Under the pieces are notes generated by a model, which was not told where the DNA came from, made no database searches, and saw only the letters and a program-made list of their open reading frames with translations. A DNA stretch of 64,000 bases from Bacteroidales bacterium. GTDB taxonomy: Bacteria > Bacteroidota > Bacteroidia > Bacteroidales > UBA1715. Each line of letters opens with the position of its first letter. Positions within the stretch are counted from its first letter, which is position 1. The DNA is taken from positions 3,486 through 67,485 of the forward strand of contig JAFZOY010000010.1 in the NCBI GenBank assembly GCA_017552705.1. Reading direction: 5' to 3'. Below, piece after piece: positions 10,601 to 60,779 of the stretch. The translations under genes were made by a program, and so were the position numbers.

Positions 10601-11036
10601 ACAGCAAACCATCATCGTCTTCAACAATATCATACACATCGTTGTTGCTCAACGAATTTTCATCGTTGGGATCGTGCATATAGCGGACGAACGTTTCGGT
10701 AAGCGGATTGTATTCGTTCAAACCACCGCCCAACGTACCAATCCAGATTTTTCCGTACGAATCCAAATACAGCGACAAGATACGGTTGCTCGAAATCGAC
10801 TCGGGATTATTTGGCTCAGGCTTAAACACCTTGAACGTATAACCATCATAACGGTTCAAACCATCGAGAGTGGCAAACCACAAAAAGCCTGTTGAGTCCT
10901 GAATAATTGAGTTAATACTCACTTGAGACAAGCCGTCCTCCATCGAGACCTGCTCAAAATACATCTGAGGTTGTTGCTGGGCAAAGCCGACAACAGACAG
11001 CACAACAAGAATAATATTACTCAGAAACCTCTTCAT
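7641..11036 (-). CDS. Periplasmic two-component-regulator-propeller (Reg_prop/Y_Y_Y) sensor fused through one TM helix and a coiled coil to a SpoIIE/PP2C-type serine phosphatase domain
   Basis: It has a signal peptide MKRFLSNIILVVLSVVGFAQQ. There are many repeats of the type GxLWIGTxxGGLNxYD. A Y_Y_Y-like segment (YKYRLVGFDEDWNY) is followed by a TM helix WFYSVLILFLGLAIYIYI. The C-terminal PP2C motifs are SGDFYWF and AAVDCTGHGVPGAFMS. Confidence 0.85.
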   Translation of the reverse strand: MKRFLSNIILVVLSVVGFAQQQPQMYFEQVSMEDGLSQVSINSIIQDSTGFLWFATLDGLNRYDGYTFKVFKPEPNNPESISSNRILSLYLDSYGKIWIGTLGGGLNEYNPLTETFVRYMHDPNDENSLSNNDVYDIVEDDDGLLWLATYGGGLNCFDPKIHKFTSYKHNPSNLNSIGSNQVRTVNKDRFGNLWVGVNEGGGLDKFDKRTGIFTHVDFINHDIMSIECDRHGDLWIGTYYGGFGVMNPETHKYKVFENNPLDTLSLSNNIVWTFYEDTITNIMYVGTRGGGLNYFDVNTKEFLGAEKMHQHDYAISSNNILSILRDKSGILWLGSETAGLNKYNTHRKKFSLLHPSQDFKSMITSDNVMTILEIKNYSAEHDGHFLVGTRGAGLLYYDKDFNVIKTYQSTNDDKNNINMITAIVQDPRGFFWLGTDGNGLFRFSLEKGVLDHYEYVEEASNVLSNNAVTALCLDAQLRLWIGTYGGGLCKYEWEKGKFTKYDVNTSNFMRNVIWSVMLDSQDVIWAGTNGRGIMRVDPETNVVEFFEPDQNHANSLNSEIVYSLLETRNGTFWVGTGGAGICKFNRREKTFISYTKKSHGLTNDMVLAMQEDRRGNLWISTCYGISRFAPFAETFTNYNESDGLQGNAFNERATFKSSSGMLYFGGSKGMSYFFPDSITNDTYTGHVVVTGLKIYNKEVEIGDEIQGEVILHQAITMTKELSLSYKYNFSIEFSILNNVAPSKVQYKYRLVGFDEDWNYTDASKRSATYTNLAGGEYIFEVTATNNDGVWSNEITQLTITIVPPFWKTTWFYSVLILFLGLAIYIYIKYREHFYKEENAKLEKMVNDRTEEIAEQNKKLEIQSDMLTHNNEELAKTNRLIKDSISYAKRIQDAILPPISELHTYFPNAFILFKPRDIVSGDFYWFTEREGYMYVAAVDCTGHGVPGAFMSMIGATLLQQITYKKLRTPAEVLDKLNIGVRTALNQKANASPESQEDGMDITLCLINKVEKTVQVAAANHVVYCVHDGLIETIEGDMASVGGSMNTEVNIYSNHQFSYTPGTRLYMFSDGYQDQFGGDENKKFLGVHFKKLLFETSTLPMEQQCEKLDTTFEKWKGQRKQIDDVLVLGLELD

Positions 11037-11109
11037 TTAGAAAAATAAACCCGTAAATATAAGAATTTATTTTCTTCTTTGGCACCTGATTCTCGAAAAA
11101 AACAACAAA

Positions 11110-27632: not shown

Positions 27633-27726
27633 CATGAATTTCTTAGAAATTTTTTGCCTCGCCAAAAAAAATTATTACATTTGTCTAATAAAATTATTAG
27701 ATACACCTAATAAAATTTTTAACACA

Positions 27727-28914
27727 ATGAAAAGAACTATATATCAAACGGTTATAAATCGTTTAAAAGAGCCAAGAAAGTTTATCCAAGTATTGTTTGG
27801 ACCTCGTCAGGTGGGAAAAACAACGTTGATGACACAGGTTCTCGAAGAAATTGAAACGCCATATCTGTTTGTTACCGCCGACGATATTGCAGGCATGGAC
27901 GATGCGTGGTTGCATACGGTTTGGAATCGAGCCCGTGTGGAACAAAGCGAGAAAAAAGACCAAGATTTTTTATTGGTTATTGACGAGGTTCAAAAGATTC
28001 AGAATTGGAGCGAGATAGTAAAAAAGGAATGGGATGCCGATACGCAAAGCCATCGGCCGATAAAAGTTGTTTTACTTGGCTCCTCGTCGTTGTTGATTCA
28101 AAAAGGTTTGTCGGAATCACTGGCTGGGAGGTTTGAGCAGATGTATATCACCCACTGGTCGTATGCCGAAATGAAAGAAGCATTTGATTTTTCGATTGAC
28201 CAGTATATTATGTACGGTGGCTATCCCGGGGCTGCTTCGCTTGTCGGCGATGAACAGCGATGGCGTAGTTACGTGCGTCAGTCGTTGGTGGAAACAACTC
28301 TGTCGAAGGATATTCTTATGATGACACAGGTGAACAAGCCCATTCTGCTTCGACGGCTGTTTGACATTGGTAGTTCGTATTCCGCACAAATTCTTTCGCT
28401 GAACAAAATTCAAGGGGAGCTGAACGAGAAAGGAAATCTTACGACTTTGGGCGGGTATCTCGACCTTTTAAACGCGGCAGGTCTGTTGTGCGGTCTCGAC
28501 AAATATGCGGGAAGCATTATCTACCAACGTGCCTCGAAACCTAAACTGCAAGTTCACAATAATGCCTTGATGAGCATTCAAAGTATGAAAACTCTTGCAG
28601 AAGCAAAAGCAGACACAACATATTGGGGACGTTTGGTGGAATCAGCAGTTGGCACACATTTGTTAAATTATTCGAAGACAGAAGGTTATGAATTATATTA
28701 TTGGAACGAAAATTCCAAGGAAGTGGACTTTGTGTTGAAATGTGGAGAAAAAATTGTGTCGCTGGAAGTAAAAAGCGGTGTTGATTCCCAAAACGAAGGC
28801 ATAGCCTTGTTTCAAGGGAAATTTCATCCATCGTTGTCACTTGTGATTGGTACGGACGGAATACCATTTGAAAAGTTTTTCACAATGAATCCCTTAGAGC
28901 TTTTTAAAATTTAG
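27727..28914 (+). CDS. AAA-family ATPase with a C-terminal DUF4143-like (restriction-endonuclease-like) domain
   Basis: The start was refined to ATG 27727 (MKRTIYQTV). Walker A is LFGPRQVGKTTL and Walker B is LLVIDEVQK. The C-terminal segment YYWNENSKEVDFVL…EVKSG is typical of this widespread family. Confidence 0.8.
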   Translation: MKRTIYQTVINRLKEPRKFIQVLFGPRQVGKTTLMTQVLEEIETPYLFVTADDIAGMDDAWLHTVWNRARVEQSEKKDQDFLLVIDEVQKIQNWSEIVKKEWDADTQSHRPIKVVLLGSSSLLIQKGLSESLAGRFEQMYITHWSYAEMKEAFDFSIDQYIMYGGYPGAASLVGDEQRWRSYVRQSLVETTLSKDILMMTQVNKPILLRRLFDIGSSYSAQILSLNKIQGELNEKGNLTTLGGYLDLLNAAGLLCGLDKYAGSIIYQRASKPKLQVHNNALMSIQSMKTLAEAKADTTYWGRLVESAVGTHLLNYSKTEGYELYYWNENSKEVDFVLKCGEKIVSLEVKSGVDSQNEGIALFQGKFHPSLSLVIGTDGIPFEKFFTMNPLELFKI

Positions 28915-29977: not shown

Positions 29978-30757
29978 TCATTCTACCCATATTGCTTGGG
30001 TTGCATTGCAAGAAAAAATATTCTCATTGCTATTAGTGTCATATACGAAACACTGATTTCCTTTTTTATATAAAATATATTTATCGTCGTTTGAATATAA
30101 TGGACAACAGCCTTCAATATAAAAATCCTTAAATTCATTTTTGTGTATATTATATTCCACAATAGTCGGAAGCTCTTTTATTTTCCTCCAATCATATTTT
30201 CCAACAATTCTCTCACAGATTATTTTTTCCCTATCAGAAGAAAAAGATGGATTAAAATATCCTATTTTATAACCTTTATCAATTTGTTTTGGTTCAAGAA
30301 TAGAGAAAATATTTCCATTGCTGTCTTTGGTTTCTACAAATCCCATATTGTTTAATATCTGTATTTTATTACAATATAAATCCTCTATATTTGTTATAGA
30401 AAGATGCTCTAATTCAGAATTAGAAACTCTATAGAAATATTTATTTTCTATTATTGTGTCATTTTTTAATGTCACATCATTTTCGTCAAATTCCACAATA
30501 ATTTCGGATAAAAATTTATTTTGATAAAAGAAATAATAATCATTCTTTTTGTATAATGTTACAATATATTTGTTGTCGTGATGGTAACAACATCCAAATT
30601 CCCAGAGTTCAAGATTATTGATCGAAATTATCTCTTTTTGAATATTGCGCTCCATATCATAAAATATAAGTTTATCGTTATCAGATATGACAATGTTTTG
30701 TAAAGCAATAGCATTTTGTATAAACAAAGTAAAAAATATTACAAATAGTACTCTCAT
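29978..30757 (-). CDS. Hypothetical secreted protein (259 aa)
   Basis: It has a signal peptide MRVLFVIFFTLFIQNAIA. The protein is N/K/I/Y-rich with paired Cys (GCCYHH, GCCPLY) and is very AT-rich. Confidence 0.5.
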   Translation of the reverse strand: MRVLFVIFFTLFIQNAIALQNIVISDNDKLIFYDMERNIQKEIISINNLELWEFGCCYHHDNKYIVTLYKKNDYYFFYQNKFLSEIIVEFDENDVTLKNDTIIENKYFYRVSNSELEHLSITNIEDLYCNKIQILNNMGFVETKDSNGNIFSILEPKQIDKGYKIGYFNPSFSSDREKIICERIVGKYDWRKIKELPTIVEYNIHKNEFKDFYIEGCCPLYSNDDKYILYKKGNQCFVYDTNSNENIFSCNATQAIWVE

Positions 30758-30760
30758 AAT

Positions 30761-30958
30761 TTATTGTATTAAAGTACTTCCCTTTTTTGGACAGTTAAAT
30801 TTTAATTTATAGAGTATTTTAGAAAGAAGAAGTTCGTTTGTATTATCTGGGTAATCCATAAGATACAACTGATTTAACGAATCGTAGAAATAGCGATATA
30901 TAAAATTCATTGCACGATATTTATTTTCTCCTTTTTGTTGGTTTTGTATCATATTCAT
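30761..30958 (-). CDS. Possible small protein (65 aa, or 49 aa from ATG 30910)
   Basis: The ORF overlaps the end of the upstream gene by 38 nt unless the internal Met (MNFIYRYFYD) is used. I recognised no family. Confidence 0.25.
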   Translation of the reverse strand: MNMIQNQQKGENKYRAMNFIYRYFYDSLNQLYLMDYPDNTNELLLSKILYKLKFNCPKKGSTLIQ

Positions 30959-31943
30959 GCCAAAAGTTTAAACTTATAATGGCGTCACAATTATTATGAT
31001 TTCCTATGTCTAAGGTTATAAATTCATCACACGTCGTTGGATATGCTTTTTCAAGGCAACGATTCCTTTCTCCTTTAAAAAAGGATCCTTTTGAAACACC
31101 AGGAGCAGAAAAGTCAACTCGTTTCCCCTTAAAATCGAAATTTCCTCGACACGATTTAAATATACAATTCAAATAATCCGCTTCATATTCGTTTAGAAGC
31201 AGATTATTATCTATACCCATTCTGTCGAAATTATCTATTACTTCTTTGGGTATATCGTCAAACGATATTCTTGAAGATTCTTTTGTTATAGTGTCCTTAA
31301 TCACAGAGTAATTCTTAATTCCTTCCTTATCCTCATAGAGGATTTGCACATCATTTTCGAAAACACAATAATAACACTGATTTTTTTCTCCAGTGTAAGC
31401 GAAGATAAATTTGGGAGATAATCGTAATATGGTGGATAGAACTTCTCTACTCATAGAGAAGTTTACCGAATCCCATTTCATATAAAACATTTGAGCGACC
31501 CCGACTGGTGTTTCCCCTTGTTTTTTATATATCCAACAATTATGTGTGGAGAAAAATTTCTTATTTCTGCTTGAGTAAAGTATTATTCGGTTATAGAAAT
31601 CATCTATCGAACTAAAATACAATTTTTTACAGTCTAAAGACAATTCATTGTCAATGCATTCAATTACAGAACAGAACAGAGAATTAAGTTCCTCTACGGG
31701 CGTTTTAATTCGACAATTTTTTTTCGCCCTTTTAATAGCAATTTTGTTTTTTTGGTGAATATTATAATCTGCATAATCATCTATTACGACAACCTTATAG
31801 GGACTTTTGTTATATCCAAATATGGCTTTCTTTGGAGGAAGTGTAATTTTTACTTGTTGTGCAAAACAAAATTCAGTAAATATGGAAAGAACAGCAAGTA
31901 ATATTAAGACTCTTGTTTTTCTTTGTGGGTTTAAATGTATCAT
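30921..31943 (-). CDS. Hypothetical secreted protein (~340 aa)
   Basis: The start was refined to ATG 31943 (MIHLNPQRKTRVLILLAVLSIFTEFCFAQQ, a signal peptide). It is AT-rich with no recognisable domain. Confidence 0.5.
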   Translation of the reverse strand: MIHLNPQRKTRVLILLAVLSIFTEFCFAQQVKITLPPKKAIFGYNKSPYKVVVIDDYADYNIHQKNKIAIKRAKKNCRIKTPVEELNSLFCSVIECIDNELSLDCKKLYFSSIDDFYNRIILYSSRNKKFFSTHNCWIYKKQGETPVGVAQMFYMKWDSVNFSMSREVLSTILRLSPKFIFAYTGEKNQCYYCVFENDVQILYEDKEGIKNYSVIKDTITKESSRISFDDIPKEVIDNFDRMGIDNNLLLNEYEADYLNCIFKSCRGNFDFKGKRVDFSAPGVSKGSFFKGERNRCLEKAYPTTCDEFITLDIGNHNNCDAIISLNFWHEYDTKPTKRRK

Positions 31944-32037
31944 ACATGTATCGAGTTTAGTTATTCCACACAAATATACTGCATTATTTCTTTTTTCGAC
32001 TTGTTTTCATACATTTGCACGTTCAAAAACAAAAATT

Positions 32038-34137: not shown

Positions 34138-34223
34138 TCCCCACGTAGATAACGTTTTCTTTCGAGAAAATCAGTATATTTGCAGATAAGAAAATTTGTG
34201 CACTAACGTTCTTTTTTGTGGCG

Positions 34224-35138
34224 ATGGAAGATTTTTTTTCAAAAACAAATTATACGATTCAAGATATTCTGGCACTTATCGAGAATGAAATTGAAGAGTC
34301 AATCCATCTTGAATTCAAATCAGCGGGAGCTATCGGGAAATGGGACAGCAAGAAAGCGGAAATGACCAAAGATGTGGCGGCTTTCGCCAACTCCGACGGA
34401 GGAATCATTGTGTACGGACTTTCGGAATGCAACCACAAGGCGAGCGCGCTGTCGTTCATCGACGGGACCATTTTCACAAAAGAATGGATCGAACAAGTGC
34501 TAAATTCAGGCATTCAGCAGAAAATCAATGGGTTACAAATCTTCCCTATTCGCAACAACGGCAACATTGAGCAATCAATCTACGTGGTAAAAATCCCCAA
34601 AAGTTTCAACACGCCACACATGAGCAAAGACCGGAAATTCTATCGTCGATACAATTTCGAGGCGGTTCCTATGGAAGAATACGAAATTCGTGAACTCTAT
34701 AACCGAAAGAGCCACAGTAAGTTGCTTATTCAGGGATATTATCTTGGGAAATTCAGCGAAAACGCTGAAACGCAAACGTACCATTTCCTTGCCCAGATTG
34801 CCAACGAATGCGCACGGCCAGAATCGTCGTACAAACTAAATATCTACATCAACTGTCCTGATTTAGACAAAATGTCAATCACATGGGAACAAAACGAAAA
34901 TTTCTCGTTCACGATGATTGCGCCCAACAAAGTAAAACTTTCAGCAACAGGAAGCATTCCCATCTACACAGATGAATGTCTTGATATGGCGCGGTTTTCG
35001 TTGGAAATTCCCAACAAAATTTTTGACAAAATCACCGAAGAAATGTCAATAGACATGATTCTCCTCTATTCAGACGGAAAAAACGAGTTTCATATTTCAA
35101 ACGAAACAGTGCGGAAACGACTGATTTCATTTAACTAA
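34224..35138 (+). CDS. AlbA_2 (Schlafen-like divergent AAA/DNA-binding) domain protein with an uncharacterised C-terminal half
   Basis: The N-terminus ESIHLEFKSAG…EMTKDVAAFANSDGGIIVYGL is the hallmark of the AlbA_2 domain. ATG 34224 is preferred over GTG 34218. Confidence 0.6.
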   Translation: MEDFFSKTNYTIQDILALIENEIEESIHLEFKSAGAIGKWDSKKAEMTKDVAAFANSDGGIIVYGLSECNHKASALSFIDGTIFTKEWIEQVLNSGIQQKINGLQIFPIRNNGNIEQSIYVVKIPKSFNTPHMSKDRKFYRRYNFEAVPMEEYEIRELYNRKSHSKLLIQGYYLGKFSENAETQTYHFLAQIANECARPESSYKLNIYINCPDLDKMSITWEQNENFSFTMIAPNKVKLSATGSIPIYTDECLDMARFSLEIPNKIFDKITEEMSIDMILLYSDGKNEFHISNETVRKRLISFN

Positions 35139-39536: not shown

Positions 39537-40475
39537 ATGACAAAAATTGCTACAAATATTACGGAATTGATAGGTGGCACGCCCCTTTTGGAGCTTTCAA
39601 AGACGGAAAAACAATTAAAGCTGAAAGCTACCGTTTTGGCAAAATTGGAGTGCTTGAATCCTGGAAGAAGCGTGAAAGACCGCGTGGGTTTGGCTCTGAT
39701 TGAAACAGCAGAGAGAAAAGGACTCATAAATAAAAACACAGTAATAATAGAACCAACAAGCGGAAATACAGGGATTGGTTTGGCAATTACCGCCGCAACA
39801 CGTGGCTATCGCTTGATTTTGACTATGCCCGATTCCATGAGTATAGAACGGAGAAGTCTGCTCAAAGCGCTTGGCGCGGAACTTGTTTTAACGCCTGCCT
39901 ACGAAGGTATGCCGGGTTCTATCCGCAAAGCAAAAGAGCTGGCGGCTGAAATTGGTAATGCGTTTATTCCGCAACAATTTGCAAATCAAGCAAATCCCGA
40001 GGCTCATTACAAAACAACTGGTCAGGAAATTATTCGTGACACCGACGGAAAAGTCGATATTTTCGTTGCTGGTGTTGGTACGGGCGGTACGGTTACTGGT
40101 GTAGGACTTGCACTGAAGGAATACAATCCCAATATAAAAATTGTCGCTGTTGAGCCATACGATAGTTCTGTCCTTTCGGGGCATAAACCAGGCCCGCATA
40201 AATTGCAAGGCATCGGAGCGGGATTTATTCCCGAAGTGCTCGACACCAATATTTACGATGAAATCTTCAGAGTGAAGAACGACGATGCGTTCGAGGCTTC
40301 AAGAAACTTTGCGTCGCAGGAAGGCGTGTTGGTGGGAATTTCATCGGGGGCGGCTTTACATGCGGCTATTGAAATCGCAAAACGTGCGGAAAATCGTGGA
40401 AAAACCATAGTCGCCCTCTTGCCTGATTCGGGAGAACGATATTTGTCAACAACACTTTTTTCAAACTTAAAATAG
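39537..40475 (+). CDS. cysK: Cysteine synthase (O-acetylserine sulfhydrylase family; CysK versus CysM type not resolvable by eye)
   Basis: The start was refined to ATG 39537 ([20 protein letters not shown]). The PLP-lysine motif is [16 protein letters not shown], with [10 protein letters not shown] and a [10 protein letters not shown] loop. Confidence 0.92.
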
Positions 40476-40482
40476 AACAACC

Positions 40483-40695
40483 ATGGCAAAAATTACAGTA
40501 AACGGTCAAGAACAAGAAGTTACATTGCCTTTGTCGCTGATAGAACTGATGACAAACAACAATGTGGAACAACCAGAAATGGTAAGCGTGCAAATCAACG
40601 AAGAGTTTGTGGAACGTGAGAATTTTCCTAAAACACAAATAAAGGACGGCGATGAAGTTGATTTCCTTTATTTTATGGGTGGTGGAGCATTTTAA
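40483..40695 (+). CDS. ThiS/MoaD-family sulfur-carrier protein with a C-terminal GG followed by two extra residues (…YFMGGGAF)
   Basis: This 70-aa beta-grasp-like protein (MAKITVNGQEQEV…DGDEVDFLYFMGGGAF*) lies 7 nt after cysK and just before an E1-like enzyme. Confidence 0.8.
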   Translation: MAKITVNGQEQEVTLPLSLIELMTNNNVEQPEMVSVQINEEFVERENFPKTQIKDGDEVDFLYFMGGGAF

Positions 40696-41547: not shown

Positions 41548-42027
41548 ATGGCAGAAAATAAAAAATTATCGCTTATCGCCTTCTCAGGCGAATTTGACAA
41601 ATTAACGGCTGTATTCACGCTGGCCACGGGTGCTGCGGCTGTAGGATACGAGGTGAACATTTTCTTCACTTTCTGGGGGCTTGATGCCATTAAACAGAAA
41701 AAAGGAAGAAGTTTTGTCGGCGGCACATTCCTGACGAAAATATTCGGATTTATGATGGGAGGATTGCATGCCACACCAACGAGCCGATTCAATTTCTTCG
41801 GTTTTGGACCATGGATTTTCCGTAAACTTATGAAAAAGAACAACGTTGCCACACTCGAAGAACTTGTTGATGCGGCTCACGCTTTGGGCGTAAACCTTTA
41901 TGCGTGCGAAATGGCTATGCACGTGCTTGGCCTTGAGCAGAAGGATTTCATACACGAAGTAAAAGACACTCTTGGCGTTGCCACGTTCCTTGAACTATCG
42001 GAAGGCGGACGAACAATGTTCATTTAG
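41548..42027 (+). CDS. DsrE/DsrF-like (DrsE_2-type) sulfur-relay family protein
   Basis: KLSLIAFSGEFDKLTAVFTLATGAAAVGYEVNIFFTFWGL and a conserved Cys in YACEMAM are present. The 159-aa size is typical of the family. Confidence 0.7.
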   Translation: MAENKKLSLIAFSGEFDKLTAVFTLATGAAAVGYEVNIFFTFWGLDAIKQKKGRSFVGGTFLTKIFGFMMGGLHATPTSRFNFFGFGPWIFRKLMKKNNVATLEELVDAAHALGVNLYACEMAMHVLGLEQKDFIHEVKDTLGVATFLELSEGGRTMFI

Positions 42028-42088: not shown

Positions 42089-42310
42089 ATGACTCACACA
42101 TTGGATATAACAAAAGAACATTGCCCAATGACGTTTGTAAAAACCAAACTGAAATTGGCTCAAATAGCCGACGGCGATATTTTGGAAGTGCTTCTTACTG
42201 AAGGCGAACCATTGAACAACGTTCCCCGTTCGGCAACAGAACAAGGTTATAAAGTACTGTCGGTCAACCACGTTGACGGACAAATCCATAAAGTAACAAT
42301 TCAGAAATAA
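42089..42310 (+). CDS. tusA: TusA/SirA-family sulfurtransferase
   Basis: The 73-aa protein has the CPxP-type active-site context LDITKEHCPMTFVKTK and ILEVLLTEGEPLNNVP. Confidence 0.85.
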   Translation: MTHTLDITKEHCPMTFVKTKLKLAQIADGDILEVLLTEGEPLNNVPRSATEQGYKVLSVNHVDGQIHKVTIQK

Positions 42311-42709
42311 ATGGAAATAATAGTAACGGAATCGGCATATCGTGACGTTCTTGCACAGGCGAAAAAGGATGCTCCGCTTGAATCGTGCGGCTATTTGATG
42401 GGACCCGACAAAAACACGGTCACTGTCAATTATCCGATGAAAAATGTGGACGAGTCGGCCGAACATTTCAGTTTCGACCCGAAAGAGCAATTTGCAGCTG
42501 TGAAATACGCCCGCCAAAACGGACTTACAATCGTAGGCAATTGGCACAGCCACCCTGCCACGCCGTCAAGACCTTCGGCGGAGGATATACGTCTCGCCCT
42601 TGATTCCAACATTCTCTATTTCATACTCTCGCTTGCCGAACAAACACCTGTGTTTAACGCATTTGTGATTTCAAACGGCGAAGTGCGGGAGAAAATCAAC
42701 ATTCGATAA
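42311..42709 (+). CDS. JAMM/MPN+ (Mov34) metalloprotease
   Basis: The E…(ESCGYL) and HSHPATPSRPSAEDI segments give the full JAMM motif H-x-H-x7-S-x2-D. The start codon abuts the tusA stop. Confidence 0.88.
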   Translation: MEIIVTESAYRDVLAQAKKDAPLESCGYLMGPDKNTVTVNYPMKNVDESAEHFSFDPKEQFAAVKYARQNGLTIVGNWHSHPATPSRPSAEDIRLALDSNILYFILSLAEQTPVFNAFVISNGEVREKINIR

Positions 42710-42754: not shown

Positions 42755-44194
42755 ATGTCAGACAACAACATTCAACGCAGTATTACGACTGCTACGGCTC
42801 GAAAATTAGCAAATACCACCAAAACCCCACCACAGATGGGTTCCATAACACCTCGTCTGTTGCTGAAACTTTTACCATGGGTGCAAGTGGAAAGCGGTAC
42901 ATATCGAGTAAATCGTACAAAAGTGGAATTAAAAAAGGCGGAACGTATTGAAATTCAATATTTTGACGGCGTACCAAGTTTTTCCGCGAAAAATCTTCGC
43001 GCTATTCCGTTGTTTTCGCACATCGACCAAGAAATTGTTACCGATTTGGCACGAAATTTTGTACCTGTCGAAGTCAAGCGTGGTAAAAATCTGATTACGC
43101 AAGGCAAGGACAAGCAAAAATTCTTTATCGTTGCAAGTGGTCAAGCCGAGGTCATAAGCGCAGGAATCCACGGAGAAGAATTGCGTATAGCTCTTTTGGG
43201 TGCCGGCGAATACTTCGGGGAATCGGATTTGCTGAGTGCCGCAAATTCCACGGTAACGGTTCGTTCCATCACAAACTCAGTTTTCCTGCAATTGGAAACG
43301 CCTGTGCTTGAGAAACTTATAAAAGAACGTCCTAATTTCCGTGAACAGTTCAACAATGCCGTTGACGACCATTTGCGTCTGAAAGCGACGGTAAACGACC
43401 ACGGTGAAAAACACATTGACTTGGTAAGTGGTCATGAAGAGGACAATATTATTCCTGAAACCTACATTGACTACGACGAAAATCCTACCGAATACTCGCT
43501 CAATACATTACAGACGGTTGTTCGCGTCCATACACGTGTAAGCGACCTTTACAATGCTCCCTACAATCAATTGGAACAACAATTGCGACTTTCTATCGAA
43601 AGTATTAAGGAGCGTCAGGAATGGGAACTCATAAACAACAAAAAATTTGGACTTTTGGCACAAGCAAATCCTGCTTACAAAATAAGTGCACGCTATGGCG
43701 CCCCCACTCCCGACGACCTTGACGAACTTCTTTCGCTTGTGTGGAAGGAACCAGCATTTTTCATTGCAAATCCTCGTGCCATTGCCGCTTTTGAACGTGA
43801 ATGCACATGGCGTGGCGTTCCACCTGTAAGCATTGATTTGTTTGGCACAAAAGTGATTACGTGGCGTGGTGTTCCTATCGTTCCATCCGACAAAGTGGAA
43901 GTTAAGGGACAATATCTTACAAACCGTGGCGTAGGCACAACAGAAATTATTCTGGTACGTGTTGGCGAAAAGGAACAAGGCGTTGTGGGTTTGCACCAAT
44001 CGGGAATCCCTGGCGAAATCGCCCCGTCGTTGTCGGCTCGTTTGATGGGATTGGACCAATACGGTGTAACAAGTTATTTGCTGACCAAATATTTCAGCCT
44101 TGCAAGCTTGACCGACGATGCCATTGCCGTTTTGGAAAATGTGGAAGTTGGCTATTATCATGATTATCAACACAGAAATCAAATTGAAAAATAA
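42755..44194 (+). CDS. Family 2B encapsulin nanocompartment shell protein (HK97 fold with an inserted cNMP-binding-like domain)
   Basis: The N-terminus TARKLANTTKTPPQMGSITPRLLLKLLPWVQVESGTYRVNR matches what I recall of family-2 shells such as Synechococcus SrpI. So does the core ETYIDYDENPTEYSLNTLQTVVRVHTRVSDLYN…GAPTPDDLDELLSLVWKEPAFFIANPRAIAAFERECTWRGVPP…ITWRGVPIVPSDKV. Residues ~78-195 form a CAP_ED-like insertion (FFIVASGQAEV…GEYFGESDLL). Confidence 0.85.
   Translation: MSDNNIQRSITTATARKLANTTKTPPQMGSITPRLLLKLLPWVQVESGTYRVNRTKVELKKAERIEIQYFDGVPSFSAKNLRAIPLFSHIDQEIVTDLARNFVPVEVKRGKNLITQGKDKQKFFIVASGQAEVISAGIHGEELRIALLGAGEYFGESDLLSAANSTVTVRSITNSVFLQLETPVLEKLIKERPNFREQFNNAVDDHLRLKATVNDHGEKHIDLVSGHEEDNIIPETYIDYDENPTEYSLNTLQTVVRVHTRVSDLYNAPYNQLEQQLRLSIESIKERQEWELINNKKFGLLAQANPAYKISARYGAPTPDDLDELLSLVWKEPAFFIANPRAIAAFERECTWRGVPPVSIDLFGTKVITWRGVPIVPSDKVEVKGQYLTNRGVGTTEIILVRVGEKEQGVVGLHQSGIPGEIAPSLSARLMGLDQYGVTSYLLTKYFSLASLTDDAIAVLENVEVGYYHDYQHRNQIEK
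42986..43339 (+). other. cNMP-binding-like (CAP_ED) domain inserted in the encapsulin shell protein
   Basis: LFSHIDQEIVTDLARNF…GKNLITQGKDKQKFFIVASGQAEV…LGAGEYFGESDLLSAANSTVTVRS is present. FGE is conserved, but the canonical R-[ST]-A of the phosphate-binding cassette reads N-S-T. Confidence 0.7.
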
Positions 44195-45807
44195 TGTACG
44201 GAAACGAATTAGATAATGCACAACCCAATATTCCAGAATTGGGTGAGATTCCGAAGTGGACTGTTCCGATAGAAACTCCAAATCCAGACGGGATAGTCTC
44301 TCCATTGCCTCCTTCAACCTTTACTGAGAGTGCGGATTTATCGGGGCTTCCACTATCGGGAACTTTGCTGCCGGGCGATTTATCGGATGCCGACAAGACT
44401 TTGTTCCGCAATGTTGTGGAAAAGTTTTTCCCTAATTCCATGGCAAAGGAACAGGCATTGTCGCTGATGAACGTTAATTCTGACGATTCGGATGCTAGCA
44501 GCAAAAAATGTCTGCTCAACGACAATGGTTTCGGCATTGGTATCCCCGAAATGGAACTTGTGAAAAATCTTCGATACGAAGATTCCGATGTCATCAACAG
44601 CGACGCAATACGACAGCAGTTCCCCATTCTTCATCAAAAGGTGAACGGAAAAGACCTTGTTTGGTTCGACAATGGTGCAACCACACAAAAACCACTTCGC
44701 GTTATTGACGGTTTGAGCGAATTTTACAAGCACGACTACTCCAACATTCACCGTGGAGCTCATACGCTTGCCGCCCGCTCCACCGACCAATACGAAGGTG
44801 CACGCGAAAAAGTGGCACGCTTCATAAACGCTCCCTCTTCCGAAAATATTATTTTCGTGCGTGGGACAACCGAAGGTATCAACTTGGTTGCGAACACGTT
44901 TGGTAGGAAAAATCTGCTTGCAGGCGACAACGTAATTGTTTCCACTCTTGACCACCATGCCAACATTGTGCCGTGGCAGCAAATCTGCAAGGAAGTCAAG
45001 GCGGAACTGCGTGCCATTCCAATTGACAAAAACGGTGATCTAATTTTGCCAGAACTGGAACGTCTTATTACACCACGCACAAAATTCATTTCGGTTGGAC
45101 ACGTAAACAATACGTTCGGCACGGTGAACGACGTTCGTACAATCGTGAAAATTGCCCATTCACACGGGATTCCGGTCCTGCTCGACGGCGCGCAGTCAAT
45201 TGCACATACCAAAATTGACGTGCAGGAACTAGACTGCGATTTCTTTGTTTTTTCAGGGCATAAGATTTATGGTCCGTCGGGAATCGGTGTCGTGTATGGC
45301 AAGAAGGAAGTTTTGAGCCAACTTCCGCCATGGCAAGGTGGTGGCAACATGATAAAGGACGTTACCATTGAAAAGACTGAGTTCAACGAACCGCCTGCTC
45401 GTTTCGAGGCTGGTACGCCAAACATTGCCGATGCCATCGGATTGGGCTATGCACTCGATTTTGTTCAAAGCGTCGGAATTCAAAACATCGAACGACACGA
45501 ACATGATTTGACCGAATATGCACGTGAGCAAATCGGCAAGATTCAAGGCATTACTATTATGGGAAATCCAAAAAATCGTGTAAGCGTGGTTTCGTTTGAT
45601 GTACACGGAATACCTGCCCCGCAAGTCGGCCAAATGCTTGACAAAGAAGGAATTGCTGTCCGTGCAGGACACCATTGCGCCCAACCTGCTTTACGTGCCT
45701 TGGGCTACGAAATGTCGGTGCGCCCTACGTTTGCGGTATATAACACCCGTGCTGAAGTTGACCGATTGGTCGCCGCTTTGCAAAAGATTGTCGGAACAAG
45801 CAAATAA
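44194..45807 (+). CDS. SufS-type (group II) cysteine desulfurase with a ~135-aa N-terminal extension (putative encapsulin cargo-loading domain)
   Basis: The core starts near IRQQFPILHQKVNGKDLVWFDNGATTQKP. The PLP lysine lies in FFVFSGHKIYGP and the catalytic Cys in RAGHHCAQP. The N-terminal 135 aa are P/S/D/L/G-rich with no fold-like pattern. The ATG overlaps the shell stop (TAATG at 44192-44196). Confidence 0.9.
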   Translation: MYGNELDNAQPNIPELGEIPKWTVPIETPNPDGIVSPLPPSTFTESADLSGLPLSGTLLPGDLSDADKTLFRNVVEKFFPNSMAKEQALSLMNVNSDDSDASSKKCLLNDNGFGIGIPEMELVKNLRYEDSDVINSDAIRQQFPILHQKVNGKDLVWFDNGATTQKPLRVIDGLSEFYKHDYSNIHRGAHTLAARSTDQYEGAREKVARFINAPSSENIIFVRGTTEGINLVANTFGRKNLLAGDNVIVSTLDHHANIVPWQQICKEVKAELRAIPIDKNGDLILPELERLITPRTKFISVGHVNNTFGTVNDVRTIVKIAHSHGIPVLLDGAQSIAHTKIDVQELDCDFFVFSGHKIYGPSGIGVVYGKKEVLSQLPPWQGGGNMIKDVTIEKTEFNEPPARFEAGTPNIADAIGLGYALDFVQSVGIQNIERHEHDLTEYAREQIGKIQGITIMGNPKNRVSVVSFDVHGIPAPQVGQMLDKEGIAVRAGHHCAQPALRALGYEMSVRPTFAVYNTRAEVDRLVAALQKIVGTSK

Positions 45808-45832: not shown

Positions 45833-46987
45833 ATGTCAATAGGAATTGATACAAAATGTTTGCATTTGGAAGACGGAGACGACCTTGACGCCAATTATGG
45901 CGCCGTGAGCTATCCGATTTACCAGACAGCTACATACGCCCATTTTGGCGTTGGGAAAAGCACTGGCTACGATTATAGCCGTTTGCAAAACCCCACCCGC
46001 AAGCAACTTGAAAAAATAATTGCTTCGCTTGAAAATGGCATCGACGCTCTTGCCCTAACGTCGGGAATGGCGGCAATTTCCTTGCTGATGGAGTTATTCC
46101 GCCAGAACGACCACATTATTATTGAATCGGATTTGTATGGAGGAAGCACACGGCTTTTCAGAACGGTTTCCGAGAAAAACGGATTATCGTTCTCGAGTGT
46201 TGACTGCACAAACATTGAAGCCGTTGAAATGTGCATAACAAACAATACCAAGGCTATTTACATTGAAACGCCTACCAATCCGATGATAAATGTTGCCGAC
46301 ATCAGGGCGTTGGCGGAACTTGCCCATCGGAACAGACTTTTACTGATTGTTGATAACACATTTTTGTCGCCCTATTTCCAAAATCCTCTTGATTTGGGTG
46401 CGGATATTGTGGTGCATAGCGGCACAAAATTTCTGGGCGGCCACAACGACACACTGGCGGGATTCATTGTAACCAACAATCAAAAAATAAGCGACGACTT
46501 GCGTTTTCTGATTAAAACCACTGGTACAGGACTTGCTCCGTTCGACTGCTGGCTGTTGATTCGTGGCGTGAAGACGCTCGGCATTCGTATGAAAAAAGCA
46601 CAGGAAAACGCGCTCAAAATAGCAGAATGGCTGAAAACACAACCCATTGTCACCAAGGTTATCTACCCAGGATTACCCGAACATTCGGGACATTCAATTT
46701 TGAAAAAACAGGCACGCGGATTCGGTTCAATGCTCACGTTCCAAGTGCAGAAAAAAGAGTTCGCCTGTAGTTTTCTTGAAAAAGTGAAGCTGATAAAATT
46801 TGCTGAAAGTTTAGGTGGTGTCGAAACGCTTGTGACATACCCTATTACACAAACCCACGCCGAAGTTCCGCCAGAGGAACTCGCTCGTAACGGAATAACT
46901 GACTGTACGTTACGCTTGTCTGTCGGCATTGAGGACAGTGACGATTTGATTGCGGAAATGGAAAAAGTTTTTAATGAATTAAAATGA
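45833..46987 (+). CDS. Cys/Met-metabolism PLP enzyme (cystathionine gamma-lyase/beta-lyase/gamma-synthase family)
   Basis: The start was refined to ATG 45833 (MSIGIDTKCLH). YSRLQNPT and the PLP-lysine motif HSGTKFLGGHNDTLAG are present. At 384 aa it fits MetB/MetC/CGL better than MetY. Confidence 0.88.
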   Translation: MSIGIDTKCLHLEDGDDLDANYGAVSYPIYQTATYAHFGVGKSTGYDYSRLQNPTRKQLEKIIASLENGIDALALTSGMAAISLLMELFRQNDHIIIESDLYGGSTRLFRTVSEKNGLSFSSVDCTNIEAVEMCITNNTKAIYIETPTNPMINVADIRALAELAHRNRLLLIVDNTFLSPYFQNPLDLGADIVVHSGTKFLGGHNDTLAGFIVTNNQKISDDLRFLIKTTGTGLAPFDCWLLIRGVKTLGIRMKKAQENALKIAEWLKTQPIVTKVIYPGLPEHSGHSILKKQARGFGSMLTFQVQKKEFACSFLEKVKLIKFAESLGGVETLVTYPITQTHAEVPPEELARNGITDCTLRLSVGIEDSDDLIAEMEKVFNELK

Positions 46988-47031: not shown

Positions 47032-48231
47032 ATGGCAGAACGAAATCTTGATTTTGATACTATTGTAAACCGTTGCGACACTGATTGCCTGAAATACGAT
47101 TTTGCAAAGGAACGGGGGCTTCCTGCCGACGTGTTGCCCCTTTGGGTTGCCGATATGGATTTTAGAACGTCGTCGTATATTGAAGATGCTCTTATTGAGC
47201 GAGTTATGCACGGTGTATTTGGCTATAGCGATTCAAAGGAGCGATATTTCAATGCAGTTGCCTCGTGGATGGAAAAACAGCACCATTGGCGTGTGCACCC
47301 GTCGTGGCTTGTAAAAACGCCAGGTGTAGTGTGTGCTTTGGCTATGGCTGTAAAAGCTTTTACACACGAAGGCGACAAGGTGTTAATCCAACAACCAGTC
47401 TATTACCCCTTTACAGGAGTGATTGAAAGTAATCGCCGCATAGTGGTAAGCAACGACCTGATTTTAGGTGACGACAATCGCTATCATATTGATTTTAAGG
47501 ATTTTGAAAATAAAATACGGCAACATGACATAAAACTTTTTTTGTTGTGTAGTCCACACAATCCTGTCGGCAGGGTTTGGAGTCGCGACGAATTGACCAA
47601 AATTGGCGAAATCTGCCTACGTTACGGTGTGATTGTCGTTAGTGACGAAATCCACAACGATTTTGTGTTCCGTGGCGAACATACTGTTTTTGCAAATATT
47701 AGCAAAGAATTTGCCGACATAAGCGTCACATGCACCGCCCCGAGCAAGACGTTCAACCTCGCTTCGTTGCTCGTTTCCAACATTTTTATACCAAATAGGA
47801 ATCTACGATGTGCCTTCCGCAATCAATATGCTGCGGCGGGAATGAGCCAAATCAGCGCATTGGGGCTTGTTGCCTGTGAAGCGGCGTACAACCACGGACA
47901 AGAATGGTACATGGCAATGAAAACGTATGTTGCTGAAAATATAGCATTTACACGCAACTATATAGAGAAAAATATTGCCGATGTACGTATGATTGACTTG
48001 GAGGGAACGTATCTTGTGTGGCTTGACTTTAGGAAATTGGGACTAACAAATGCCCAATTGGAAGATTTGATTATAAATCACGCACACTTGTGGTTGGACA
48101 GCGGAAGCATTTTTGGAAAAACTGGTGATGGTTTTCAACGGATAAATGTCGCCTGTCAACGTTCCACTTTGCTCGAAGCACTCAAACGAATCGAGGCGGT
48201 TGTCAAAAATGTAGATTCTTCGAAATTATAA
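47032..48231 (+). CDS. MalY/PatB-family C-S lyase (class I aminotransferase fold)
   Basis: FDTIVNRCDTDCLKYDF is the PatB-type N-terminus. LWVADMDF, the PLP-lysine motif APSKTFNLASL and a C-terminal QRINVACQRSTL are present. Confidence 0.85.
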   Translation: MAERNLDFDTIVNRCDTDCLKYDFAKERGLPADVLPLWVADMDFRTSSYIEDALIERVMHGVFGYSDSKERYFNAVASWMEKQHHWRVHPSWLVKTPGVVCALAMAVKAFTHEGDKVLIQQPVYYPFTGVIESNRRIVVSNDLILGDDNRYHIDFKDFENKIRQHDIKLFLLCSPHNPVGRVWSRDELTKIGEICLRYGVIVVSDEIHNDFVFRGEHTVFANISKEFADISVTCTAPSKTFNLASLLVSNIFIPNRNLRCAFRNQYAAAGMSQISALGLVACEAAYNHGQEWYMAMKTYVAENIAFTRNYIEKNIADVRMIDLEGTYLVWLDFRKLGLTNAQLEDLIINHAHLWLDSGSIFGKTGDGFQRINVACQRSTLLEALKRIEAVVKNVDSSKL

Positions 48232-48241
48232 TTCAAAGATT

Positions 48242-49132
48242 ATGAACAAAATAAACATATTAAAGAAAAATGTTGACATTCTTTCGGAATTAACCGAAGC
48301 AGAAAAAACAATGAAGACCGAAGGCGGAAAACAACCTTCAATAAAGGCAGTGGAAACCATTATTGAACTGCTGAAACAAATCATGTTTCCTGGTTATTTT
48401 GGGACAGAAATCAGAAACAATGACAGCAGGCACTATCACATAGGCATTAGCATGGAACTGTTGGAGATGGAGCTGAAAGAACAAATTCTATTGAGTTTTA
48501 TAGGCTTCAAAGGCGAAAAAGTTCAGGAAACCGAGATAGATGAGATAACACTACGTTTTATTGACACCATTCCTGAAATAAAACGTGTGCTTTACACCGA
48601 CATCGAGGCAATGTATAACTCCGATCCTGCGGTAACGGCCTACGGCGAGATTATTTTCTGCTATCCAATTGTACAAGTTATGATTCATTACCGTGTTGCA
48701 CACGCATTGCTGCAACTTGGCGTGCCGGTGTTGCCTCGGATTATTTCGGAAATGGCCCATTCAAAAACAGGCATTGACATTCATCCCGGGGCGCAAATTG
48801 GAGAATATTTTTCAATCGACCACGGAACAGGTGTGGTTATTGGCGAAACGTGTGTAATTGGCAACCACGTCACTCTGTATCAGGGCGTTACATTGGGAGC
48901 AAAAAAATTTACGTTTAACGAAAACGGACAACCGGTAAACGTGCCACGTCACCCCATAATTGAAGATAACGTCACCATATATTCCAATTCATCTATACTT
49001 GGTCGTATCACAATTGGGCACGATACCGTGGTTGGTGGTAACATTTGGCTCACAGAAAGCGTGAAACCATATTCAAAGATAATCCAGCAAAAAGCTGTGA
49101 CATCTACATTCACCGACGGCGCCGGAATATAA
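48242..49132 (+). CDS. cysE: Serine O-acetyltransferase (long N-terminal form)
   Basis: YRVAHALLQLGVPVLPRIISEMAHSKTGIDIHPGAQIGEYFSIDHGTGVVIGETCVIGNHVTLYQGVTLG gives the SAT core and left-handed hexapeptide repeats. Confidence 0.9.
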   Translation: MNKINILKKNVDILSELTEAEKTMKTEGGKQPSIKAVETIIELLKQIMFPGYFGTEIRNNDSRHYHIGISMELLEMELKEQILLSFIGFKGEKVQETEIDEITLRFIDTIPEIKRVLYTDIEAMYNSDPAVTAYGEIIFCYPIVQVMIHYRVAHALLQLGVPVLPRIISEMAHSKTGIDIHPGAQIGEYFSIDHGTGVVIGETCVIGNHVTLYQGVTLGAKKFTFNENGQPVNVPRHPIIEDNVTIYSNSSILGRITIGHDTVVGGNIWLTESVKPYSKIIQQKAVTSTFTDGAGI

Positions 49133-60706: not shown

Positions 60707-60779
60707 CGCGGGATAGAGCAGTTGGTAGCTCGTTAGGCTCATAACCTAAAGGTCGTCAGTTCGAGTCTGGCTCCCGCTA
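60707..60779 (+). tRNA. tRNA-Met (anticodon CAT); initiator-like backbone with a C1:U72 mismatch
   Basis: The sequence is CGCGGGATAGAGCAGTTGGTAGCTCGTTAGGCTCATAACCTAAAGGTCGTCAGTTCGAGTCTGGCTCCCGCTA. The D stem is GAGC/GCTC and the anticodon stem is TTAGG/CCTAA with loop CTCATAA. The T stem is GTCAG/CTGGC. CCA is not encoded. Confidence 0.85.

Follow-up and report, generated by a model that had tools for sequence, protein, structure and literature searches.

We analysed a stretch of 64,000 nucleotides from a Bacteroidales bacterium (the window: positions 3,486 to 67,485 of contig JAFZOY010000010.1, assembly GCA_017552705.1), in which 11 genes, all on the + strand and with intergenic gaps of 0–61 nt, run from cysK (39537) to cysE (49132). 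Their order is cysK, thiS, moeB/thiF, dsrE2, tusA, a JAB protease gene, an encapsulin shell gene, its cysteine desulfurase cargo gene, a cystathionine-gamma-synthase/lyase-like gene, a PatB-like aminotransferase gene and cysE (Table 1). The original prediction, made from the letters of the DNA, had named a family 2B encapsulin shell gene translationally coupled to a cysteine desulfurase gene within a sulfur-carrier operon. Both open reading frames (ORFs) lie where it placed them, and the surroundings are as described, with six sulfur-related genes from cysK to the JAB protease gene upstream and enzymes of the pyridoxal 5'-phosphate (PLP) type and cysE downstream. The stop/start overlap can be read directly in the DNA: in TAATG at 44192..44196 the shell stop TAA (44192-44194) and the cargo ATG (44194-44196) share 1 base, and positions 44186-44200 read GAAAAATAATGTACG.

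By homology, 42755..44194 encodes a family 2B encapsulin shell with the HK97 capsid fold. The protein scores 556.6 bits against the NCBIfam 2B equivalog NF041163 (encap_f2b, cutoff 400) over residues 9-466, and Pfam assigns residues 209-466 to the SrpI-like family PF19307 (E 1.1e-111) and residues 105-191 to cNMP_binding (PF00027, E 6e-15). Solved 2B shells align over its full length (9bje at 2.8e-109 over residues 6-466, 9bix and 9bhu), and in a sequence search of the PDB the solved shells match at 1e-97 to 1e-109. The 2A shells 9ksl, 8wol, 6x8m (SrpI) and 8t6r, in contrast, align in two pieces only, residues 5-55 and 223-473. Because the 2A alignment falls into two pieces, residues ~56-222 can be read as an insertion between the N-arm and the remaining HK97 fold, and a cyclic nucleotide monophosphate (cNMP)-fold insertion at that place is what defines subtype 2B (PMC8346489). 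When the HK97 core alone is the query, 2A shells are found at about 2e-89 (SrpI 6x8m) to 8e-88 with ~50% identity. Residues 5-55 align with the 2A N-arm region, so that the shell has an N-arm rather than a family 1 N-helix, and residues 1-55 are largely invariant inside the clade. PHROGs, independently of these models, ties residues 248-465 to a phage 'major head protein' family (7e-7). The shell gene is single-copy in the window (tblastn). Across the shell and cargo assignments the E-values range from 1e-111 to 1e-167, far past chance.

Family 2 membership, for which a profile search had been proposed, and the 2B subtype, which had been deduced from an internal cNMP-binding-like insertion, both held up in these searches. 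The peptides quoted as family 2 signatures are all present in the shell: LPWVQVESGTYRVNR at residues 40-54, HTRVSDLYN at 259-267, APTPDDLDELL at 316-326, KEPAFF at 331-336, RECTWRGVPP at 348-357 and TWRGVPIVPSDKV at 369-381.

Structure prediction agrees on the fold. A first AlphaFold model, built with 25 close homologues, has a mean predicted local distance difference test (pLDDT) score of 44.9 and is confident in the inserted domain only; a second, built with a 45-sequence alignment reaching down to 44% identity, has a mean of 59.5, and its C-terminal third is still poor. A Foldseek search of the PDB with the second model nevertheless places family 2 shells in all of the top seven ranks (9bhu at 2.7e-22, 8won, 8wol, 8t6r, 6x8m, 9bje and 9bix), in line with the HK97 fold that had been suggested. 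Since the shell is 42% identical to 9bje and published shells have 60 subunits and a diameter of 28 nm, it would be expected to form a 60-copy T=1 icosahedral shell ~28 nm across.

The inserted domain is predicted with pLDDT 70-87 over residues ~65-205 and superposes on cyclic-nucleotide-binding (CNB) domains with TM-scores of 0.66-0.80 (target-length normalised); in Foldseek, CNB domains rank after the seven family 2 shells. In its phosphate-binding-cassette equivalent, the position of the CAP arginine is taken by Ser165, which is invariant across the clade alignment. Tryptophan has been reported to replace the cassette arginine in 'essentially all' 2B shells, and the S. griseus 2B shell, which lacks the arginine, binds no cyclic AMP (cAMP) in activity assays, differential scanning fluorimetry, cAMP-agarose binding or cryo-EM (PMC11550324). 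The window shell departs from the tryptophan generalisation, and three pocket types appear among the diverse 2B shells that we aligned. Streptomyces-like 2B shells have Trp; the canonical FGE...PR.A.V cassette occurs in 2B shells of Alphaproteobacteria, Casimicrobiaceae, Omnitrophota and even one Streptomyces sp.; and Ser or Ala is found in the window lineage and in relatives from six other lineages. The Arg-type shells are P0123, P0126, P0361 (L088 7001-8389), P0389 (L089 7001-8380), P0375, P0405 and P0457, and at both Arg-type loci inspected, the alphaproteobacterial L088 and L089, a desulfurase gene follows the shell gene. The 2B pocket is thus not uniform (Trp, Arg or Ser/Ala, the latter two with desulfurase cargo), which qualifies the published generalisation. 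A Ser/Ala pocket as a marker of desulfurase-type 2B shells was considered and rejected, because Arg-type shells (in Bauldia and another alphaproteobacterium) also precede a desulfurase.

As the phosphate-binding arginine is absent, the window domain is predicted not to bind cAMP or cyclic GMP (cGMP) canonically, and most likely it binds no cyclic nucleotide in that manner. Judged by their cassettes, the Arg-type 2B shells would be the best candidates for true cyclic-nucleotide-gated encapsulins. Ahead of the inserted domain, Sg Enc, the S. griseus shell, has a calcium-binding subdomain that has been published as widely conserved in 2B shells. AlphaFold predicts a beta-beta-alpha element at residues 68-81 of the window shell (pLDDT 70-80), so that such a subdomain may be present as a fold. 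In the segment that aligns with the calcium subdomain of Sl-Enc1 (9bje), the acidic residues of that shell are mostly not conserved in the window shell, a comparison of the segment as a whole given that the paper leaves the coordinating residues unnamed.

Two further features of the core may bear on docking and permeability. In published structures, SrpI F262/Y273 and Sg Enc F430/Y441 sit beneath cargo density at the three-fold axis, and the corresponding patch of the window shell contains L430 and Y441, both invariant in the close Bacteroidales alignment; Y441 is also invariant in the 45-sequence alignment. A core beta-hairpin carries the 8-residue insertion GQYLTNRG, which occurs in no solved 2A or 2B shell and is common to the Ser/Ala-type desulfurase 2B shells of several phyla; in Arg-type 2B shells the insertion at this site is shorter. 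If the hairpin lines a pore, it would alter permeability.

The second gene of the pair encodes, by homology, an intact SufS-type cysteine desulfurase with its PLP lysine and catalytic cysteine motifs. It scores 555.7 bits on the SufS subfamily model TIGR01979 (cutoff 475), and the solved SufS/CsdB structures align from residues 132-138 on (PDB 8kg1 at 4e-150, residues 132-533). The motif SGHK holds the PLP lysine (K357, nt 45262-45264) and GHHCA the catalytic cysteine (C495, nt 45676-45678), roles that we take to be those of K226 and C364 in E. coli SufS. The non-enzymatic N-terminal extension of ~135 residues that had been predicted is evident from these alignments and from the start of the Aminotran_5 match at residue 156.

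That extension would be the cargo-loading element. It is acidic, of low complexity and rich in Pro, Ser and Asn (P/G/S/D/E/N together 51%, net charge -13), and is probably disordered, judging from composition only. In relatives its length is 56-167 residues, with most close relatives at 80-167, and an alignment of 73 full-length relatives gives the layout of a short conserved start, a variable insert (residues 9-59 in the window, gapped in 70-80% of relatives), motif A and motif B. Motif A resembles the published 2A loading motif LARLANEFFS, in keeping with the family 2 loading architecture that had been claimed, and the amphipathic N-termini of outgroup 2B cargo proteins resemble it too (Planctomicrobium LTEITSRLYNMLP, Leptospiraceae IAQIASKLYNELP, Syntrophorhabdaceae IAEIATRLFREIP). 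Motif B was not seen in seven outgroup cargo proteins and is specific to the Bacteroidales clade. Its identification with the 2B terpene-cyclase motif GPxGxGTxxL was dropped, the glycines being out of register. In the cultured Viscerimonas tarda (locus L085), the desulfurase is called at 412 residues from 10776, and the frame is open for 114 codons upstream (10441-10775). Because this open frame holds the motif-A-like sequence NIAKLREIAEGILP, the loading extension was probably missed by the gene call.

Relatives of the shell number at least 313, confirmed in a scan of one genome per species. The best 80 of them, at 80-94% identity, are all from metagenome-assembled genomes (MAGs) of Bacteroidales (Prevotella, Prevotellaceae, Bacteroidaceae, Paludibacteraceae and others), mostly from rumen samples (yak, buffalo, sheep, goat, deer), which makes a rumen or gut Bacteroidales the very probable source of the window. 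In a collection of 5.8 billion proteins, all 120 matches listed are at least 76% identical to the window shell. NCBI calls several homologues 'family 2B encapsulin nanocompartment shell protein' and others 'cyclic nucleotide-binding domain-containing protein'. The shell of Viscerimonas tarda is 79% identical. An exhaustive search of 50%-identity representatives gives 233 clusters at E <= 1e-30, the nearest full-length ones being 41-49% identical. Shells at 61-66% identity come from Planctomycetota, Leptospiraceae and Syntrophorhabdaceae, and those at 45-48% from Cyclobacteriaceae, Salibacteraceae and Asgard archaea.

Some of these distant relatives have features of their own. Asgard MAGs (L083, and P0278 from a Kariarchaeaceae) carry pairs of a 2B shell and a desulfurase; in the Heimdallarchaeota MAG L083 the shell lies at 8001-9443 and the desulfurase at 9985-11430, a ThiF-JAB pair stands ~4 kb upstream on the opposite strand, and the reading frame of the cargo stays open for 195 codons ahead of its called start. 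In P0135 (997 residues), three stretches that match PF13385 (concanavalin-A-like lectin/glucanase) come after a 2A-type core, and P0284 (701 residues) is a 2B shell with a C-terminal PF13385 domain, which could be a decoration of the shells or a gene-call fusion. The nearest representative, P0121 (848 residues, 49% identity), has ~375 extra C-terminal residues with no Pfam match that may stem from a fusion or a read-through call.

Table 1. Genes of the cluster and features of the shell and cargo proteins, in window coordinates (aa, residues of the respective protein).
Feature	Position	Strand	Basis or remark
cysK, O-acetylserine sulfhydrylase	39537..40475	+	TIGR01139 449 bits (cutoff 351); Pfam PALP 2e-75
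ThiS-type sulfur carrier, 70 aa, ends ...MGGGAF	40483..40695	+	TIGR01683 thiS 62.3 bits (cutoff 37.45)
MoeB/ThiF-type E1 adenylyltransferase, 278 aa	40699..41535	+	Pfam ThiF 4e-85; NF004281 MoeB subfamily 290.9 bits (cutoff 266)
DsrE2-family protein (DrsE_2), Cys motif LYACEMAMH	41548..42027	+	PF13686 8.6e-40
TusA-family sulfurtransferase, active-site Cys in EHCPMTF	42089..42310	+	PF01206 3e-21
JAMM/JAB metalloprotease (Mec+/HcyD/desampylase-like), abuts tusA	42311..42709	+	PF14464 Prok-JAB 2.5e-25; JAMM motif HSHPATPSRPSAED
Family 2B encapsulin shell, 479 aa, ATG start	42755..44194	+	NF041163, PF19307, PF00027
Shell: N-extension and N-arm, aa 1-55, including LPWVQVESGTYRVNR	42755..42919	+	aligns with 9ksl N-arm region (aa 5-55 vs 6-56)
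Shell: E-loop insertion, aa ~56-222 (beta-beta-alpha element, cNMP-binding-fold domain, linker)	42920..43420	+	no counterpart in 2A homologues
Shell: phosphate-binding-cassette equivalent FGESDLLSAANSTVTV	43214..43261	+	Ser165 at CAP Arg82 / Sg Enc Trp176 position
Shell: HK97-fold core, aa 223-473	43421..44173	+	PF19307; SrpI 6x8m match
Shell: 8-residue insertion GQYLTNRG, aa 385-392, core beta-hairpin	43907..43930	+	gap in alignment with 9ksl, 8won, 6x8m, 8t6r, 9bje
Shell: luminal three-fold patch LSARLMGLDQYGVTSYLL, with L430 and Y441	44030..44083	+	maps onto SrpI F262/Y273, Sg Enc F430/Y441
Cysteine desulfurase cargo, 537 aa, ATG start	44194..45807	+	TIGR01979 sufS; PDB 8kg1
Cargo: predicted N-terminal cargo-loading extension, aa 1-135	44194..44598	+	no family or structure match
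Cargo: motif A, LFRNVVEKFFP, aa 70-80	44401..44433	+	clade consensus L(L/F)R.V..K(Y/F).P, 73 relatives
Cargo: motif B, DNGFGIGIPE, aa 110-119	44521..44550	+	column identity ~40% at D110, 80-99% at N111-E119, 73 relatives
Cargo: SufS-type catalytic domain	44599..45804	+	PF00266 Aminotran_5 8.6e-144, aa 156-525
Cys/Met-metabolism PLP enzyme (cystathionine gamma-synthase/gamma-lyase-like)	45833..46987	+	PF01053 2.7e-143; best NCBIfam models all below cutoff
Class I/II aminotransferase-fold enzyme, putative PatB/MalY-like C-S lyase	47032..48231	+	PF00155 9e-39
cysE-type serine O-acetyltransferase, final cluster gene	48242..49132	+	TIGR01172 9.5e-46, 155.8 bits (cutoff 210.65); NF041874 EpsC 145 (cutoff 150)

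The mechanical cysK ORF begins at TTG 39486, and ATG 39537 (MTKIATNI...) is the likelier start by homologues in L013 and L029; the E1, which is without a rhodanese domain, likely starts at ATG 40720. Housekeeping genes flank the operon, upstream GlyRS, ComEC, a fumarate-lyase-fold enzyme and an M20 peptidase, downstream FtsX, UppP, TruB and QueA, and annotation of these flanking genes found neither phage genes nor suf genes near the operon. There is no compositional sign of a horizontally acquired island around it, its GC content being unremarkable and like that of its surroundings. An Rfam search at two thresholds found no riboswitch or leader within or ahead of the operon, its sole match being a meaningless snoRNA (E 0.31). 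The sigma-70 promoter consensus differs from Bacteroidota promoters. A scan of the 11 cluster genes showed no rhodanese, and DsrE2-TusA take the upstream position.

This neighbourhood recurs in the related loci, by which we mean those of the best 80 relatives defined above. The desulfurase lies directly downstream of the shell in all 71 loci with enough downstream sequence, and at the junction, with starts set at the first in-frame ATG, 23 of 79 relatives overlap by 1 nt, 15 abut and 3 overlap by 4 nt. TusA is immediately upstream of the shell in 74/76 loci, and DsrE2 stands ahead of TusA in 75/76. Among the 43 well-flanked loci, the triad of ThiS, MoeB and JAB is found within the flanks in 36 (upstream on the same strand in 16, upstream but divergent in 9 and behind the cargo gene in 11), a CysK homologue in 27, a Cys/Met PLP enzyme in 38 and CysE in 8. 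The usual Cys/Met PLP enzyme of the relatives is, unlike that of the window, a divergent MetY-like paralogue with ~315 bits on TIGR01326 (cutoff 495). Such constancy of gene content across changing gene orders speaks for a functional link. Judged by their conserved motifs, the relay proteins also look active: the CP cysteine of TusA is kept in 76/76 homologues, the DsrE2 motif reads YACEMAMH in 74/75 and YVCEMAMH in the remaining one, so that the cysteine is present in all, and the JAB protease keeps HSHP..PSRPS.ED. The ThiS homologues mostly end in GGG plus 1-5 variable residues (GGGAF in the window), and as these residues cap the Gly-Gly, ThiS needs trimming before adenylation.

A few related loci hold genes that the window does not. 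At 6857-8807 of L002, an acyltransferase and a GlsB-type glycine N-acyltransferase stand between cargo and cysE, where the window has two PLP enzymes; L005 and L007 probably carry the same two lipid genes, judged from similar cargo-to-cysE spacing alone. A LuxR/GerE-type, response-regulator-like protein (214 residues, ending ...RAGL..S.EFYI) adjoins the cluster in several Prevotella loci (L029 6379-7023, L054 14234-14878 and the C-terminus of the ORF at L013 3992-5179) and is possibly a dedicated regulator of it; the window has no such gene.

Outside the clade, the gene orders indicate that DsrE2-TusA is not universal among 2B desulfurase systems. Cyclobacteriaceae, Salibacteraceae and two Alphaproteobacteria have shell and cargo only. 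Planctomicrobium has PALP, shell, shell, cargo and rhodanese; Leptospiraceae a hexapeptide acetyltransferase, shell, shell and cargo; and the Heimdallarchaeon shell and cargo, with its ThiF-JAB pair ~4 kb off. DsrE2-TusA reappears in a Syntrophorhabdaceae MAG (acetyltransferase, DsrE2, a gene of unknown type, TusA, shell, cargo) and in Viscerimonas tarda (PALP, DsrE2, TusA, shell, cargo). It is a recurring anaerobe cassette, in the position that aerobes give to rhodanese.

Taken as a whole, the locus is in our judgement very probably a single-component 2B desulfurase encapsulin with a DsrE2-TusA/ThiS thiocarboxylate relay and a non-canonical pocket. By analogy with solved relatives, the inserted domains would sit on the shell exterior above the two-fold pores. 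Desulfurase dimers would be tethered inside through the ~135-residue extension, whose short motifs may dock onto the hydrophobic three-fold patch (L430, Y441). L-cysteine entering the shell would be converted to L-alanine and sulfane sulfur, and the latter may accumulate as elemental sulfur, as in 2A systems. From the conserved neighbourhood, DsrE2 and TusA would be the cytosolic acceptors or remobilisers of this sulfur, replacing the rhodanese of published operons. The JAMM protease would first uncap the ThiS-type carrier, DsrE2/TusA could then pass sulfur to the uncapped carrier adenylated by the MoeB-type E1, and the ThiS thiocarboxylate would feed CysK or a MetY-like sulfhydrylase to give cysteine or homocysteine. 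Finally, the JAB protease would free the amino-acid product, after the precedents of CysO/Mec+ and HcyS/HcyD.

Several points weigh against this interpretation. AlphaFold confidence is low for the HK97 part in both models, and the cargo reaches 707.4 bits on the NCBI 2A cargo model NF041166 (cutoff 800), of which only profile positions 215-623, the catalytic part, align; such a score is expected, because the model was built on 2A cargo with ~225-residue loading domains. The ThiS triad is absent within the flanks of 7 of the 43 well-flanked loci and within 9 kb in Viscerimonas tarda. Assembly, loading, sulfur deposition and all relay steps are what we infer from homology and gene context. Desulfurising cysteine to remake cysteine is circular, and the relay makes most sense for transfer of sulfur from cysteine to homocysteine or for use of a sulfur store. 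At ~8 kDa, TusA is probably too big for the published pores, which measure 14 x 60 A at the two-fold and are partly occluded, and the co-location of the genes could reflect a shared sulfur regulon.

How closely shell and relay work together is where the readings diverge. Tentatively, the encapsulated desulfurase could be a sulfur depot and donor for a DsrE2-TusA relay that leads through ThiS to CysK or a MetY-like enzyme, with the Ser-pocket domain gating the shell in response to a sulfur-status metabolite other than a cyclic nucleotide; its scope would be anaerobic Bacteroidales and at least one Syntrophorhabdaceae. If so, the encapsulin would be the entry to a protein-thiocarboxylate pathway, in which sulfur taken from cysteine would end up in homocysteine or again in cysteine, and the long-sought exit route of sulfur from a desulfurase encapsulin would be identified. 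We give the same limited credence to an autonomous sulfur-storage compartment as in 2A, with neighbouring sulfur genes merely co-regulated and no direct hand-off. The 2A systems store elemental sulfur without an acceptor protein, relay genes are missing next to the 2B-desulfurase loci of Cyclobacteriaceae, Salibacteraceae and Alphaproteobacteria, and the loci lacking the ThiS triad also suit storage alone. However, DsrE2-TusA stays fixed directly ahead of the shell gene in 74-75 of the 76 loci despite the shuffling of the remainder, recurs in another phylum (the Syntrophorhabdaceae MAG) and holds the place that rhodanese has in other operons.

For the inserted domain, a genuine cyclic-nucleotide sensor that opens or closes the shell on cAMP or cGMP is improbable. 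The significant PF00027 match and the confidently predicted fold would suit a sensor, as would the FGE motif and the Thr after the Arg position, both kept in the window domain, and related proteobacterial desulfurase-type 2B shells retain the full FGE...PR.A.V cassette. Against this stand the invariant Ser165 in place of the phosphate-binding arginine, the loss of cAMP binding that follows from loss of this arginine in CAP, and the four kinds of assay in which an Arg-less 2B shell bound no cAMP.

It is quite unlikely that the desulfurase is free rather than encapsulated, its extension docking TusA or DsrE2 while the shell is empty or otherwise loaded. This would fit an extension about half the length of the 2A loading domain (~225 residues), with no match to the N-terminal part of the 2A cargo model and with a clade-specific motif B. 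The pairing of shell and cargo in 71/71 loci with overlapping coding regions points the other way, as do motif A, which is common to cargo of distant phyla and resembles the proven 2A motif, the conserved three-fold docking residues of the shell and the absence of suf genes from the flanking annotation.

Even less can be said for ThiS, E1 and JAB as a ubiquitin-like anti-phage system (Cap2/Cap3-like or Bil-like) that is a chance neighbour. PADLOC does report partial matches (E1-E2 model 1e-19, JAB model 6e-9), but these are limited to the generic adenylation and JAMM cores, and the locus has neither an E2 domain nor a cyclase or effector. The E1 passes the MoeB model NF004281 and reaches 361 bits on NF006444 (cutoff 449), the carrier passes the thiS cutoff, and the triad co-occurs with CysK, MetY-like and CysE genes. 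Least probable of all is that the 479-residue protein is what remains of a prophage capsid or acts as a Crp/Fnr-type transcription factor, a reading that the family models, structure alignments, Foldseek ranks and flanks effectively refute. In its favour are the PHROG match to phage head proteins, which is weak, and database entries that call homologues 'Crp/Fnr family transcriptional regulator' or 'CRP-like cAMP-binding protein'. However, the protein has no helix-turn-helix domain, its C-terminal 260 residues are an HK97 core, and the housekeeping flanks hold no phage genes and match the operon in GC. EshA, prototype of the proteins labelled 'regulator', is now assigned to the shell proteins.

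Elsewhere in the window, two ORFs of 259 and 350 residues with no Pfam match occupy 29978-31973 on the - strand, where GC is 0.284 over 30001-32000 compared with ~0.42 elsewhere; nearby are an AAA_14/DUF4143 ATPase gene (27634-28914) and a Schlafen AlbA_2 protein gene (34218-35138). At 60707-62352, a tRNA gene (60707-60779, +) adjoins a large serine recombinase gene (60739-62352, -; Resolvase and Recombinase domains), which may mark the edge of an integrated element, and GC climbs to 0.50 at the window end.

The claim of novelty in the original prediction was overstated and stands only in part. No experimental study of any 2B desulfurase system was found in the literature searched, and all experimentally studied desulfurase encapsulins are family 2A. 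The class itself had been counted, with 199 family 2B cysteine-desulfurase operons in 9 phyla (Andreas & Giessen 2021, PMC8346489) and a distribution described as 'similar' to that of 2A, where Bacteroidetes is the third most frequent phylum. Hence the shell-cargo pair belongs to an already catalogued class, whose name it would receive automatically from the models that NCBI now uses. In the searchable literature we found no description of the DsrE2-TusA cassette and the thiocarboxylate module linked to it, of a short loading domain that bears a clade-specific motif, of the Ser pocket and the hairpin insertion, or of the abundance of the window-type lineage in rumen Bacteroidales. Nor did the literature searched yield a publication linking encapsulins to TusA or a precedent for a thiocarboxylate module together with DsrE2-TusA and an encapsulated desulfurase. 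Authors of the 2A sulfur-storage work regard the remobilisation route and destination of the stored sulfur as unknown and have suggested rhodanese as an acceptor. The operon described here names a candidate acceptor (DsrE2-TusA) and a candidate destination (carrier, E1, protease and sulfhydrylase), both testable in vitro. As the lineage is very abundant in MAGs of rumen and gut Prevotella and other Bacteroidales, it could bear on the sulfur amino-acid economy of the rumen.

With the catalogued 2B desulfurase class (PMC8346489) the window shares the shell subtype, a cargo with an unannotated N-terminal extension and, through its cysE-type gene, a putative serine acetyltransferase in the operon. 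Published accessory genes of desulfurase encapsulin operons are rhodanese and serine acetyltransferase only, whereas the window has DsrE2-TusA and a ThiS/E1/JAB module and not rhodanese. The 2A systems (S. elongatus SrpI/CyD 6X8M, A. baumannii 8T6R, Mycobacterium Mmp1 8WOL) have the same ~50%-identical core, N-arm and three-fold patch and a SufS-type cargo whose N-terminal loading domain carries a LARLANEFFS-like motif. They differ in having no inserted domain and a loading domain of ~225 rather than ~135 residues, and the window has the extra 8-residue hairpin insertion in its shell and a cargo below cutoff on the 2A cargo model. Pores in 2A shells are <=6 A only and those of solved 2B shells are large at the two-fold, so that exclusion of reductants may work differently. 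Only the A. baumannii 2A system is known to deposit elemental sulfur inside its shell.

The Streptomyces 2B systems (S. griseus Sg Enc/EshA with 2-methylisoborneol (2-MIB) synthase, 9BHU; S. lydicus Sl-Enc1/2, 9BJE and 9BIX) match the window shell in full-length architecture, with the 42% identity to 9bje and the Foldseek match to 9bhu given above, and in the absence of the phosphate-binding arginine. Their cargo, too, has a disordered N-terminal loading domain, a property that in the window is judged by composition. Here, however, the cargo is a desulfurase, compared with a terpene cyclase or xylulose kinase there; the pocket has Ser instead of Trp; the hairpin insertion is present; the acidic residues of the Sl-Enc1 calcium segment are mostly not conserved; and there is one shell gene rather than two.

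For the carrier module, the closest parallels are M. tuberculosis CysO-MoeZ-CysM-Mec+ and Wolinella HcyS-HcyF-MetY-HcyD, in which a ThiS-like carrier, an E1, a JAMM protease and a PLP sulfhydrylase are likewise clustered. The CysO/Mec+ pathway and the trimming of Wolinella HcyS by the JAMM protease HcyD are reportedly work of the Begley laboratory. Like HcyS, the window carrier has residues past Gly-Gly to trim. According to PMC8191291, the MetY of Wolinella uses a protein thiocarboxylate. The window differs from both pathways in an E1 without a rhodanese domain and in the attachment of DsrE2, TusA and an encapsulated desulfurase to the module.

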